Shown here: positions 16,893 to 21,539 of the stretch, piece by piece | Layout of the letters: the number at the start of each line of letters is the position of its first letter | Position numbering within the stretch: position 1 is the stretch's first letter | Source of the DNA: a virus | Taxonomy: Duplodnaviria; Heunggongvirae; Uroviricota; Caudoviricetes | Length of the DNA stretch: 21,738 bases | Direction: 5' to 3' (one strand) | Virus record (IMG/VR): IMGVR_UViG_2537561977_000011 | The notes under the pieces: model-generated | The model's input: the letters and a program-made list of their open reading frames with translations, nothing else | Told to the model about the DNA's origin: nothing | The model's database searches: none | Program-made: the position numbers and the translations under genes

Positions 16893-17389
16893 GGGATTTC
16901 CCCGCGGGCCAGTGCGTTCTTGACGTCGCTGATCCGCGCCTCGTCGTTAGACGGGAACGTCACCAGACTGACTTCCCAGAGGTCGATTTCTTTCAGCAGA
17001 AAGGCTTCTTTGCTCCGGTCGTATTCCCAGTCTTTCAGGACGTACCCAATAGAAAGGCCGGTTAACGAACCGGCCTTCATGTGTGCATGTGCACGTTTTG
17101 CGAGGGGATCATCATCAATAAGCAACCGTCCCCTGACGTAAAGCCCGACATCGTCTTCCTTCATTTCGGTGTAAACACCGATGGGTTCATCCATGCGGTG
17201 CTGCCAGAGCAGCGCAGGTAACGCTTTTCTGTCACTCCACGCCCGCAGGGAAGCAGCAAATGCCCCGGACATCACCACATCATCGTGGCTGTCCTTTACA
17301 CCAAAGACGGAGCCATACCCTTCAAACTCACCGGAGTCACTGACAGATTTCAGACTCAGCGGTACATCAAGACGTTGTTTCGTCTGCAT
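16889..17389 (-). CDS. HK97-family prohead protease, C-terminally truncated by the IS10-like insertion
   Basis: Lies between portal and capsid genes; ends ...ARGEIP then a stop inside the IS end. Probable start ATG 17389 (AAGGA upstream); the ORF-track start at 17425 has no ribosome-binding site. Confidence 0.8.
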   Translation of the reverse strand: MQTKQRLDVPLSLKSVSDSGEFEGYGSVFGVKDSHDDVVMSGAFAASLRAWSDRKALPALLWQHRMDEPIGVYTEMKEDDVGLYVRGRLLIDDDPLAKRAHAHMKAGSLTGLSIGYVLKDWEYDRSKEAFLLKEIDLWEVSLVTFPSNDEARISDVKNALARGEIP

Positions 17390-18608
17390 TGGCGTTATCC
17401 TTCTGCTTACCGGCTTTACTGCCATCGGAGGGTTTCGTGGTCATGTTCATCGGTGTGAGATAGACATCCCCACCGGGACGCGGATTCATATCTTCCAGGT
17501 CGCGGCAGTCATTGGGAGAGTAAATCCCCCAGTTAATCCCGGTGGCGTAGGCTTCAAAACGGGATTTCATATCCCCGCGCAGTAACGCCCCGGCGTTAAA
17601 TTTGGCGTAAAACTTCCCCTGTTTGCTCTCCCTGACCAGCCCTGTATTGATCCGTTGTTCAATACGGGTCAGATACGGCACAAGGGAATAGTTGATAAAT
17701 CCGAGCCCCAGCTCTTCAATATTGTTGAAAGTGGCGCGATCGGTGTTCTGCACCATGTGCAGCGGCACGCGGAAAAGACGACAGATTTCTTCCAACTGAA
17801 ACTTGCGGGTTTCCAGGAACTGGCTGTCCTCGGCATTCAGTGCCACCGGCTTCCAGTCCAGCCCCATTTCCAGAATCATCGGACGGTGCGCATTACCCAG
17901 CCCAAGATGACGCTCCTCAAAATCCCTCTTCATGCGCTCATAAGCATCCGGCGTGAGCTTTTGTTCCGTGCGCAACACACCGGATGTCACCGCACCATTA
18001 CCAAACAACCTGGCACCGTGCTCCTCGGTTGCCGCTGCCAGTGAAATGGCCTCGCGCGCATATGCAATGGGATTCAGCCCGACCAGTCCGTCCAGCGTCA
18101 GGGTGCGCACATGCCAGATTTCATCCTGGGTCAACACATCCACGGAACCATCCGGAAACGTCACCTGATAAACCGGCTGCCACTGGCTGTTCAGCTTCGG
18201 TTCCACACAGCCCGGATCTATCGGAAGAAGCTCCACAACTTCCCCCAGCGCCTTCACCTTGTAAGCGTAAAAATTCCCCCGCAGACACAGGCAGACGATA
18301 ACCAGCTCCCAGAATTCCTGCGGCGTCATGTAGCCATTGGGTTTTGCTGAAATCAGCTTATGCAGCCGTTCATCCACCGCCCGTGTTTTAAGGGTGCCGC
18401 TGATTTTGTAGAGACTGCAGGGCAGCATACCAACAGACTCAGCCAGCACCCTGACGCAGGAATAGACCGCCGTCAGCCGCATGGCCCGCTGGCTGCTGAT
18501 CCGCTTTCCGGTATAGGTGTCGTATGACAACCCCAGCTCTTCCGCAAGCATCCCGGGCGTTGTGACGGGGGTGTTATTTTTGCGTTGAAAAAGCCCCTGG
18601 AAAAACAT
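17367..18608 (-). CDS. portal protein, HK97 family
   Basis: 413-aa ORF directly downstream of the terminase genes; GGAGGTGA upstream of ATG 18608..18606, which overlaps the upstream stop (TAATG). Confidence 0.85.
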   Translation of the reverse strand: MFFQGLFQRKNNTPVTTPGMLAEELGLSYDTYTGKRISSQRAMRLTAVYSCVRVLAESVGMLPCSLYKISGTLKTRAVDERLHKLISAKPNGYMTPQEFWELVIVCLCLRGNFYAYKVKALGEVVELLPIDPGCVEPKLNSQWQPVYQVTFPDGSVDVLTQDEIWHVRTLTLDGLVGLNPIAYAREAISLAAATEEHGARLFGNGAVTSGVLRTEQKLTPDAYERMKRDFEERHLGLGNAHRPMILEMGLDWKPVALNAEDSQFLETRKFQLEEICRLFRVPLHMVQNTDRATFNNIEELGLGFINYSLVPYLTRIEQRINTGLVRESKQGKFYAKFNAGALLRGDMKSRFEAYATGINWGIYSPNDCRDLEDMNPRPGGDVYLTPMNMTTKPSDGSKAGKQKDNANADETTS

Positions 18609-18801: not shown

Positions 18802-20559
18802 TTAAAGCGAGCGAATACCAACGCTGACCAGATGCTCAGACAGATCCGGCTCCGGTTCACCGCCATTGACCAGCATCCGGCTCATTGCTGTAAACATCGC
18901 AACAGGGCCGTCGATTTTGGCTTCCGGCGTGGATTTGTTCGGGAAGATATTGTCGTTTTTGTCCGGTTTCACCGTAACGTTAGACATCATCCAGTTCATG
19001 ACCGGGTGATTACTGTGATGGAAACGCCCGGCATAGACCAGTGATTCCGTTTCCTTCATGGCCTCTGACAGATTGCGGACCGTCTGCGGAACTTCCACCA
19101 GCGGTATACCTTCTTCAGCCAGCGCCAGACTGAACTGCATTGCGCTCCACGGGTCAAATCCCAGTTCCCTCAGGTTTTCACCGCCAATCCATTCCAGTAA
19201 GTCACTTTTTATCTGAGCATGATCGATAACATCACCATCCGTCAGAATCAGCTTATCCATCTCCGCCCACTTCCGGTAAAGTTCTGCCTGCTGCCGCGAG
19301 CATCGTTCCAGCCGTCCTTCCGGAAGCCAGAATTTAAAATCGGCATGAACATGCCCGTTATCCGTTCGCCAGAGTTTTGCCGCCGCACAGATATCAATCT
19401 TATGAGCAAGGTCAACGCCGACCCACATGGGATACGTTTTCAGCTCATGTCGTGGGGCAATGTATTCGCACTTCTCCCACTTAATCATGTCCATCCAGGC
19501 AGACTCTGCTGTTACCCACACATTCATGTGTTTGGTAAAAAAATTCACCCGCGCAGAGACCTGTTCTTTCGCTTTTTTCGCCAGGCGACGCAGATCATCC
19601 CAGCGTTTACAGATGCCCAGGCCGGGATTCGCTTTCTGCCAGACCGTTTCATCAAACGGATCATCTCCCTCATCGAGGGTGTAAATAATCGCAAAGTAGG
19701 AGTCGTCTTTTACCGCGCCCTCCACGTCGCTGTTATAGCCACGCAATACCTTGATGGCGTAATCACGCTGCTCGTAACAAATCCCTTCCTTGTTAAACCC
19801 TGCCGTGGTGATACCAAATAAAAGGGACTGCAGACGGGCACCGGTTGCCGTTTCCAGAACGTCCCACACGTCACGGGTTTTATGTGCATGCAGCTCATCA
19901 ATAATGGCGCAGTGGATGTTCAGACCATCCAGGTTGTTTGCATCTGAAGAAAGCGGTTCAAATTTTGATGCGCTCTGCTCCTGATAAATCGCCAGCTTGT
20001 TGAAATCAAACAACCGCCCGAGTGTCGACCGGGCTTTTCTGACCATATTTTTGGCGTCTTCAAACACGATTCTGGCCTGGTCACGCGTGGTTGCGGCTGA
20101 ATACACCTCAGCCCCGCCTTCACCATCTCGCCCCCGTCATATACAGACCGATACCTGATGACAGGGTTGATTTTGCGTTTTACGGGCGACTTCGTTGTAC
20201 GCTGTCCGGAAACGGCGCACCATCACCGGGCGTCCGCTGCCATCGCTGCGCATGACAACTTCCCCGGTCTCTTCATTCACCAGCGGAATGACAAAACCAA
20301 AAATATTAATGAGGATAAACACATGCCAGTCCATCAACTCAATGGGCTGACCTGCCAGCGCCCCTTTTACATGGGGCACAAATTTGTAGAAATTCAGGAT
20401 GTGCTGCGCACGGGGTTCACTGAAATAAATCCCCCGCTCTTCGCCGTACTTCAGATCATCAAGAAAACGCTGGCAGGCCAGACGGACAAATTCACCAGCG
20501 ACAATTTCTCCTGCAACAACACGTTCGGCGTAGCGGATCCCGTCAGCCACTTTTGCCAT
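18802..20559 (-). pseudogene. terminase large subunit, disrupted: P-loop region out of frame between two compensating homopolymer indels (A-run 20178..20181, G-run 20131..20135) with an in-frame TGA at 20137..20139
   Basis: ORFs 20137..20559 and 18802..20106 are in the same frame, separated only by TGA. The window frame reads ...EVARKTQNQPCHQVSVCI*RGRDGEGGAEVYSAATTRDQ, whereas the alternative frame across the 47-nt interval reads KNAKSTLSSGIGLYMTG, a Walker-A segment. Confidence 0.85.
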
Positions 20560-21041
20560 CAGTCTCTCGCTTTTAAAAGTTCTGCCAGCAGATCAACATC
20601 ATCCGGTCCGGCGATATTTACTTTCGCCCGGCTTGCCGGTGACATACCAAATTCTGCAAGCATCGCCCGGATCCGCTTCCAGGCATCCGCTTTCATCGCA
20701 GCAGCCGGGTGTGCCTTAATCAGCACATCACCGTTCTGCGTTTCCGTGCGGTAGGTATAACCCTCAACATCGAGGGTTTCGCAGTGATGCCGGTATTCGG
20801 TGTAGGCTTCCACCAGCAACTCGAGTGCACGCGCATCAAGCTGAGAAATGATCCCTTCCGCATTCAGCTCTTCCGCCATTCGCCTGAACCAGTACTTTCC
20901 CTGCGCCCCTAAATGCTGCGGAATTTTAGGGAGACCTTTTTCGTCCTTTTTAGCGGTTTTTTTGGCGTCTTTAACGGGACGCTTTGAGGGATTGCCTCGT
21001 ATCAAATGCAGGCGTGGCGGGGTTTTCGGGGGTCCTGACAT
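20559..21041 (-). CDS. terminase small subunit, P27 family
   Basis: 160-aa ORF with GNPSKRP near the N-terminus and FGMSPASRAK near the C-terminus, typical of P27-family TerS; stop TGA overlaps the terL ATG (ATGA). Confidence 0.8.
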   Translation of the reverse strand: MSGPPKTPPRLHLIRGNPSKRPVKDAKKTAKKDEKGLPKIPQHLGAQGKYWFRRMAEELNAEGIISQLDARALELLVEAYTEYRHHCETLDVEGYTYRTETQNGDVLIKAHPAAAMKADAWKRIRAMLAEFGMSPASRAKVNIAGPDDVDLLAELLKARD

Positions 21042-21109
21042 AATCGATTTTACCTATCAATCGCTTGATCGCATTCCCAAAAAAAAGTTTTCGAACCTGC
21101 GGCGATGCG

Positions 21110-21170
21110 AGGAAGGGTTGGCGGGCGGTCCCGGACAGCCAGGGCTGCAGGGATTTGACCCGCCCCTCCC
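21110..21170. promoter_or_regulatory. candidate cos / terminase recognition region: GC-rich imperfect inverted repeat (GGCGGGCGGTC ... GACCCGCCCC) in the HNH-terS intergenic space
   Basis: Arms at 21120..21130 and 21157..21166 separated by about 26 bp; G-rich arms resemble lambdoid cohesive-end sequences; location matches where cos lies in HK97-like genomes. Confidence 0.35.
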
Positions 21171-21188
21171 TACAAGTGAGAATAATTA

Positions 21189-21539
21189 TCACCTGATTCG
21201 TTCGCGCGCTGTTTTCGCTTTATGGCAGGGCCAGCACAGACTCTGCAGGTTGCTGTCTGCGTCTGTTCCGCCATGCGCTTTCGGGATGATGTGGTCGACG
21301 GTTTTCGCCTCGCTCACCACACCGACACGCAGACACAACTGACACAGACCTTTATCGCGCTTCAGAATACGGGCACGAATCACCGTCCATTTTGAGCCAT
21401 AGCCACGCTGGTGGCGGCTCAGTCCGCGCTGGTGCTGCACCCAGCCTTCACCGCGATGCTTATCGCAGTAACCCGAACTGTCTGTGGTTGTACCTGCACA
21501 TCCACGCTTACGGCAGGCACGTGGGATTAGTGATGGCAT
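21189..21539 (-). CDS. HNH endonuclease (packaging-associated)
   Basis: 116-aa ORF; GAGG 7 nt upstream of ATG 21539; N-terminal Cys4 cluster (CRKRGC...CDKH) and C-terminal HNH motif DHIIPKAHGG...N...LCWPCH; directly upstream of terS. Confidence 0.85.
   Translation of the reverse strand: MPSLIPRACRKRGCAGTTTDSSGYCDKHRGEGWVQHQRGLSRHQRGYGSKWTVIRARILKRDKGLCQLCLRVGVVSEAKTVDHIIPKAHGGTDADSNLQSLCWPCHKAKTARERIR

Follow-up and report, generated by a model that had tools for sequence, protein, structure and literature searches.

The locus raises the question of where the genome ends of an ancestral phage lay, and whether a short gap between two of its genes still carries the site at which they were cut. 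The window, i.e. the whole stretch of 21,738 nt that was analysed, belongs to an E. coli chromosomal prophage and is 99.7% identical to the FDAARGOS_944 chromosome. All genes in the neighbourhood of the gap are on the minus strand, in the order HNH, gap, terS, terL and portal (open reading frames and Pfam), and the distance between the HNH endonuclease gene (21189-21539) and terS (20559-21041) is exactly 147 bp (21042-21188). An earlier note on this DNA had singled out the gap as the expected place of a cos site and had pointed to a GC-rich inverted repeat and a T8 tract within it. Both elements are present, with the arms reading GGCGGGCGGTC (21120-21130) and GACCCGCCCC (21158-21167) on the plus strand and the T8 tract appearing there as A8 (21079-21086), and the proposed location gained support from in-register homology to cos regions with known ends. 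The gap very likely represents the cos site of a phage of the HK97/P27 type, which packaged its DNA by HNH-dependent cos cleavage and persists in E. coli as a defective prophage. The site is a further HK97/P27-type cos site and thus of an already known kind.

The proteins encoded around the gap are those of such a phage. The HNH gene (minus strand) encodes 116 aa with a Pfam HNH domain (PF01844, E 1.6e-16) and a zinc ribbon, CxxxxC...CxxH, at the N-terminus. The protein is 34% identical to HK97 gp74 (E 2e-10) and 38% identical over nearly the full length, including the zinc ribbon, to the HNH protein of Bacillus phage Gamma, N.phiGamma (E 1e-16); from these homologies it is probably the accessory nuclease of the packaging machine. 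The terS gene (minus strand, 160 aa; Pfam PF05119, E 1.2e-25) encodes a small terminase subunit of the P27 family (Terminase_4), and is named 'phage terminase small subunit P27 family' in the nearest RefSeq genomes. Its product is 19% identical to the TerS of phiP27 and 33% identical across 90 aa to that of Gamma, while BLASTP gave no similarity to HK97 gp1. Next follows a terL pseudogene (18802-20559, minus strand), the frame of which is broken into pieces of 140 and 434 aa with Pfam matches to TerL_ATPase and TerL_nuclease. An intact terL homologue from phi467, 96.9% identical to the window gene at the nucleotide level, encodes a protein 29% identical to HK97 gp2 (E 7e-41). The portal gene (17367-18608, minus strand; Pfam Phage_portal) completes the group. 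The gap thus lies where an HK97-type cos is found, between an HNH gene and terS-terL-portal, and it is flanked by TerL and HNH proteins related to gp2 and gp74 of HK97; this gene order is typical of HNH-dependent cos phages (PMC13595911).

Alignment to known cos regions, which the earlier note had suggested as a check, placed the gap in register with those of HK97, SfI/SfII, phiP27 and Gamma. A common layout emerged, in which GGGG(C/G)GGG(A)TC is followed after 26 nt by (G/T)AC and then by a GC-rich cohesive end of 9-10 nt. The corresponding family signature, GGGGCGGGTC-N26-KACCGCC, has a single match in the window (21124-21166, minus strand), with 0.01 expected, and at the level of sequence this homology to known cos sites is, unlike the inverted repeat, far beyond chance. 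In phage orientation, which would be that of the window minus strand, the site would start with a box at 21170 to 21152, continue through a spacer and GAC into CGCCCGCCAA at 21127 to 21118, and end with a block at 21104 to 21076. The box (21152-21170, minus strand), which contains the left arm of the repeat and is conserved, reads GGGA-GGGGCGGGTCAAATC, or GGGAGGGGCGGGTCAAATC in full. The spacer (21131-21151, minus strand) is 21 nt long and includes the small palindromes CAGCC..GGCTG and CTGCAG. Its length is fixed, with the 21 nt between TCAAATC and (G/T)AC being alike in HK97, phiP27, the SfII type, the phi467 type and the window, and its sequence varies by lineage. The GAC triplet (21128-21130, minus strand) lies directly 5' of the predicted cohesive end, as does (G/T)AC in HK97, phiP27, SfII, ST64B and Gamma; some distant clades have CAG, AAC or AAA in its place.

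HK97 offers a comparison with published positions. The linear HK97 record ends in GGGGGGGGATCAAATC, 21 nt, GAC and CGCCGCCAAA and restarts with GTTTGAATTT, given also as GTTTGAATTTAACGCTAACCCGATTTTTTT. Since the numbering of the record agrees with the published positions +1, T16, C:G21 and A:T 24-29 (PMC11331095), the record is opened at the cut. The ends of HK97 have been described as 10-nt 3' overhangs (PMC11331095; PMC9410871 Fig. 1); the Discussion of PMC9410871 assigns 12 nt to HK97 and 10 nt to lambda, values that seem to have been interchanged. The order of elements is shared throughout, from the HNH gene over the box, 21-nt spacer, GAC and GC-rich 10-mer to a GC core with an A/T tract and terS, and the HK97 box GGGGGGGGATCAAATC and 10-mer CGCCGCCAAA stand in register with GGGGCGGGTCAAATC and CGCCCGCCAA of the window. 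TerL and HNH are 29% and 34% identical, respectively, whereas the TerS proteins have no sequence relation. Further differences are found in the A/T tract, which spans +23 to +39 in the window and +24 to +30 in HK97, in gp74, which in contrast to the window HNH protein has no N-terminal zinc ribbon (PMC3592412), and in the distance from the HNH stop codon to the box, which is 18 nt in the window and about 270 nt in HK97.

The Stx2e phage phiP27 and the Shigella and Salmonella phages SfI, SfII, SfV, SfIV and ST64B form a second group. Among phage records (blastn), phiP27 gave a match of 97.8% identity that begins within the HNH gene and runs to window position 21120, so that it reaches into the 10-nt 'cos-site' CGCCCGCCCC annotated in the phiP27 record. 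In phage orientation, phiP27 reads GGGAC CGCCCGCCCC GTCAAA and the window GGGAC CGCCCGCCAA CCCTTC, i.e. the homology stops within the 10-mer (window 21118-21127 versus 2999-3008 of the phiP27 locus L001), with eight of the ten positions matching. The 10-mer finishes with AA in the window and with CC in this group. Beyond this point the downstream block, terS and terL of phiP27 represent another module (TerS 19% and TerL 38% identical). TerS itself falls into one Pfam family in the phiP27 group and the window, and carries the name 'P27 family' in the nearest genomes. Run-off sequencing on SfI virion DNA left a gap of 10 nt, TGCCCGCCCC (PMC3636060), which follows GAC in the register of the window, and SfII and ST64B carry GGAC TGCCCGCCCC in the same register. 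Because the run-off reads leave a gap and do not overlap, the ends of SfI are inferred to be 3' overhangs. As a separate observation, the prophage shows a mosaic joint at cos, with the HNH gene and left part of cos being phiP27-like and the downstream block, terS and terL being phi467-like; module exchange appears to have occurred at the cut site itself.

The third system, Bacillus phage Gamma with its relatives Wbeta and Fah, has a Gram-positive host with 35% GC. The Gamma record repeats CGCCGCCCC at both ends, preceded by GTAC, and carries the box GGGGCGGGTC 39 nt upstream (L213, L214). The distance from box to (G/T)AC is therefore that of the window; the HK97 box GGGGGGGGATCAAATC and the Gamma box GGGGCGGGTCGAAAAAC, which are nearly identical to that of the window, both lie 39 nt from the cut, as in the window. 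Gamma also has a P27-family TerS and an HNH protein that is related over its full length (38% identity). The box continues as GAAAAAC in Gamma and as AAATC in the window, and the cohesive end comprises 9 nt in contrast to the 10 nt predicted here. A 9-nt cos with a 3' overhang was described for the Gamma/Wbeta group (PMC4113786), whereas PhageTerm assigned a 5' overhang to Wbeta-like phages (PMC8878798), and the polarity is thus inconsistently reported for these phages.

From the register with the mapped ends, the cohesive end of the window is predicted as the 10-nt 3' overhang CGCCCGCCAA (21118-21127, minus strand; TTGGCGGGCG on the plus strand). The top strand would be nicked between 21118 and 21117, the 3' boundary being uncertain by about 1 nt, and the bottom strand between 21127 and 21128, within CG^GT at 21126-21129 of the plus strand. 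The 10-mer of the window differs from every mapped one, matching that of phiP27 at 8/10 and that of HK97 at 6/10 positions (ungapped). GAC CGCCCGCCAA was nevertheless found in 13 other IMG/VR prophages, nine of which have a terL that is open to the limit of the locus, and the sequence is therefore not a private decay product of this copy. Lineage-specific GC-rich 10-mers occupy the same fixed offset in other relatives as well, e.g. TGCCCGCCCC, CGCCGCCTGA, CGCCCGCCAA, CGGCGTGGGG and CGGCGCCCCC. If the prediction holds, the ancestral genome ends of the window are placed to within about one base. The comparison also supplies a short rule by which cos can be annotated in HK97/P27-like prophages, consisting of the box, 26 nt, (G/T)AC and a GC-rich end of 9-10 nt.

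A cos site in the gap that is cut elsewhere, be it in or near the box, at another offset or with 5' overhangs, is the first of the alternatives to be weighed, and it appears improbable. The collections searched contained no phage with the exact terS type and cos variant of the window together with mapped ends, the PhageTerm result for Wbeta-like phages could be read in favour of 5' overhangs, the box is the best-conserved element of the region, and (G/T)AC is replaced by CAG, AAC or AAA in some distant clades. Against this, the cohesive sequence begins immediately behind (G/T)AC, at a distance of 39 nt from the box start, in all four relatives characterised independently of one another (HK97, SfI, phiP27 and Gamma); the overhang of HK97 is 3', and the gap in the SfI run-off reads likewise fits 3' overhangs. 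Finally, a metagenomic viral contig of 42 kb stops precisely behind ...CAGGAC, on the downstream side of the box. This contig, IMGVR_UViG_3300037043_000053 (42,325 bp; L178 9430-9467), terminates past its HNH gene directly after GGGGCGGGTCAAATC, 20 nt and GAC, which is the look expected of a physical end with its 3' overhang trimmed. Several other records were considered as references opened at cos and proved uninformative: the record of mEp235 (NC_019708) opens with the terS ATG, that of Fraca stops some 14 nt short of the terS ATG judging from the hit coordinates, and the phi467 and vB_Eco records are in prophage order.

The box upstream of the predicted cut was also considered in its own right. 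The 15-mer GGGGCGGGTCAAATC (21152-21166, minus strand) is present as an exact match in at least 120 IMG/VR contigs; the loci compared for the box, including those of HK97 and Gamma, were L091-L210, L211 and L213. Among the 121 matches listed, an HNH gene lies directly upstream on the same strand in 102, with protein identities down to about 30%, and a recognisable terS lies downstream in 85; some of the neighbouring HNH genes in this list are only 30-45% identical. An exact 15-mer beside HNH genes of such divergence indicates that the DNA of the box is much better conserved than the surrounding genes. Across 50 unique close relatives, no variation is seen at 10 of its 19 columns, with a majority frequency of 0.965 on average. 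Contigs with a GC content of 35-71% carry a variant signature in which TCG follows the box. At the right end of the genome, the box is proposed to act like cosQ or as a docking element for the nuclease. The papers that could be read contained no description of it, and a full-text search with the box sequence returned unrelated primer matches only.

A more far-reaching and tentative reading is that GGGG(C/G)GGG(A)TC, placed 26 nt before (G/T)AC|YG, is an undescribed universal cis element of HNH-dependent cos sites, the HNH protein nicking the bottom strand at YR^GT(C/A) and TerL cutting the top strand 9-10 nt away by distance. This is possible, though we would sooner bet against it. The box occurs in enterobacterial and Bacillus phages as well as in contigs from high-GC hosts; if the reading is true, it would be a cosQ-like docking or termination signal, and the HNH protein would do more than stimulate TerL. 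Two minor features were observed near the box. A promoter-like sequence, TTGACC-17 nt-GAGAAT, lies at 21155-21183 on the plus strand, opposite to the genes; its -35-like hexamer is the reverse complement of the box (GGTCAA), which is probably a coincidence. Moreover, a clade of eight loci (L115, L116, L142, L144, L147, L157, L183 and L196) has kept the box with 10-mers of the form CGGCG(T/C)GGGG. Approximately 40-110 nt after the box, these loci share TCACG.GTGCAAAAA...TTTCAAACGGGGTAT.AACCCC with a small dyad GGGG..CCCC, presumably the binding site of another TerS family.

The boundaries of the cohesive ends also bear on which nuclease cuts which strand. N.phiGamma is a site-specific and strand-specific nickase that recognizes CG^GT, corresponding to AC^CG on the other strand, while its relatives nick YG^GTY, BG^GT and CSG^GT, with CA^GT acting as a star site; its biological function was called unknown in the same report (PMC3592412). 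Where the cohesive end begins on its 5' side, the bottom-strand sequence is CG^GT(C/A) in Gamma, HK97, phiP27 and the window, and CA^GTC in the SfI type, so that the nick of N.phiGamma coincides with the end of its own phage. The other nick shares no sequence between the systems (AAA|GTT, CCC|ATC, CCC|GTC and CAA|CCC). Given that the preferred site of the homologue falls on the boundary, the bottom-strand nick is most likely made by the HNH protein. HK97 gp74, however, has been called non-specific and credited in vitro with no more than a stimulation of TerL (PMC3592412; PMC13595911), which counts against a direct nick by the HNH protein. Two options were left open in PMC11331095, one of which is the model with the HNH protein on the bottom and TerL on the top strand, and the coincidence described here offers a testable answer to this strand-by-nuclease question, left open in papers from 2024-2026.

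A mechanism can be proposed on this basis. TerS would bind the block at +14 to +42, consisting of a GC core followed by the A/T tract with the T8 run, and would stall or position the TerL motor. The bottom strand (the plus strand of the window) would be nicked at CG^GT, most likely by the HNH protein, and the top strand 10 nt downstream, most likely by TerL, leaving 3' overhangs of 10 nt. The box, in the position of lambda cosQ, may serve as the termination or docking signal at the DNA end that enters the head last. The box shared across phyla and the HNH nick site matching the cos boundary are the two points that appear most worth following up.

The inverted repeat, which the earlier note had taken as a dyad symmetry marking cos, fared less well than the location. 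It consists of a perfect complement of 6 bp (GGCGGG/CCCGCC) with 2 bp beyond a 3-nt bulge, and was unlisted in a repeat search at a minimum length of 8. When the whole gap was folded as DNA, the z-score was -1.30, and 24 of 200 shuffles folded equally well; for the 65-nt core, the z-score was -1.69 (11/200 shuffles). A complement of at least 6 bp to the left arm was found in 29% of composition-matched shuffles of the right-hand region. The complementarity between box and cut region ranges from 3 bp in HK97 over 5 in the phi467 type, which is the commonest relative, 6 in the window and 7 in Gamma to 8 in the SfI type and phiP27, and amounts to 3-4 bp in clades with 10-mers of the CGGCGTGGGG type. 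Natural variants of the left arm (GGGGCAGG, GGGGTGGG and GGGGCGGGGC) occur without a compensating change in the right arm. This variation from 3 to 8 bp, together with the uncompensated variants, shows that the dyad is not a conserved requirement; it is chance-level complementarity between a G-rich box and a C-rich cohesive end. The anatomy is instead set by the register of the conserved signature, according to which only the right, terS-proximal arm represents the predicted cohesive end, and the left arm belongs to the separate conserved box.

That the repeat itself is the signal, forming a hairpin or cruciform or offering proteins a symmetric binding site by which cos is defined, is accordingly given only a slight chance, equal to that of a cut elsewhere in the gap. 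The arms do exist, and the SfI type and phiP27 with 8 bp and Gamma with 7 bp have more complementarity than the window. Half-sites of the GGTC type are also present in both arms in inverted orientation, with the box having GG^GTC in its top strand and the cut region CG^GTC in its bottom strand, and these resemble the nicking sites of HNH enzymes (PMC3592412). Set against this are the fold z-scores of -1.3 and -1.7 and the frequency of 6-bp complements among shuffles, a cos in HK97 that works with 3 bp, the low values in the phi467 type and the CGGCGTGGGG-type clades, and the lack of compensation in GGGGCAGG, GGGGTGGG and GGGGCGGGGC. A hairpin or cruciform as functional signal was rejected on these grounds.

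The T8 tract, in turn, is part of a block that is placed like the TerS site of HK97. The block, CGCCGCAGGTTCGAAAAC-TTTTTTTT-GGG (21076-21104, minus strand), lies at +14 to +42 from the predicted cut, includes the T8 run and is a candidate TerS-binding (cosB-like) site. In 50 unique relatives with nearly the same terS, 25 of its 29 columns are invariant. Loci with a TerS of only 50-74% identity still carry the core CCGCAGGTT..AAAACTTTTTT, and a contig of 67% GC has the similar GCGCAGGTTTCCGGAAACTTTTTTT. The block travels with the terS type and not with the HNH type: phiP27 has the HNH gene and box in common with the window and a different block and terS, while a few loci combine another upstream gene and an HK97-like box with a block and terS of the window type. 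The minimal site bound by HK97 TerS extends from +15 to +29, with C:G at +21 and an A-tract being essential (PMC11331095). The near-invariant T8 block of the window, with its GC core and A/T tract, lies at a comparable position, +14 to +42. As the window and HK97 TerS proteins have no sequence similarity, the analogy is positional only; it makes it most likely that the T8 run belongs to the candidate TerS-binding site and is not the tail of a terminator.

The latter possibility, a transcription terminator or another regulatory element where the lysis/HNH genes border on the head genes, is highly improbable. A GC-rich dyad and a T-run do occur together on the coding strand of the gap between these genes, but they are not adjacent, with the T8 run beginning 32 nt after the dyad. 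A scan of 20800-21400 found no terminator-like site, compared with a mean of 0.9 in shuffles, Rfam gave no family in the gap, and homology to mapped ends explains the same sequences. A SAM_alpha riboswitch candidate within the terS coding sequence (20929-20985, minus strand) scored 24.6 bits, below the gathering threshold of 36, and was taken as a chance match. Headful (pac) packaging by the ancestral phage, with a gap that holds no defined cut site, is just as improbable, as no point in its support was found and it is opposed by the homology of TerL to the HK97 cos terminase, by the gene order and by the alignment of the region to mapped cohesive ends.

The site can also be compared with the cos of phage lambda. 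The lambda cos is organised as cosQ-cosN-cosB and is cut to a 12-nt 5' overhang, with Nu1/gpA as terminase and with IHF. Its cohesive end GGGCGGCGACCT bears a loose resemblance to the window site through a CGCCGCC core on the complement. The general plan of the proposed site is also shared, in that an upstream termination element, a nicking site and a TerS-binding site next to terS follow one another. The resemblance does not extend to the type of site, which is HK97-type, HNH-dependent and predicted to leave 10-nt 3' overhangs: the overhangs of its relatives are 3', opposite in polarity to the 5' overhangs of lambda-type cos and different in length. Pfam assigned the window terminase to Terminase_4 and TerL_ATPase/TerL_nuclease and not to the Nu1/gpA families. 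Lastly, an HNH protein is required at sites of the window type, while lambda uses gpFI and IHF (PMC13595911).

While the cos site looks intact, the terminase that would have cut it is broken in this copy. Compared with the phi467 gene (96.9% identity), the window terL lacks one nucleotide near 20182 and has gained one near 20129. The two indels are 53 nt apart and shift the frame, with a stop after codon 140, and the gene is annotated as 'frameshifted' in FDAARGOS_944. With terL frameshifted, the prophage cannot package itself, and cohesive ends cannot have been made by this copy. We infer that it could be packaged in trans only, by a relative with the same TerS specificity. In FDAARGOS_944, the portal gene additionally carries an IS4-like insertion, which is absent from the window.
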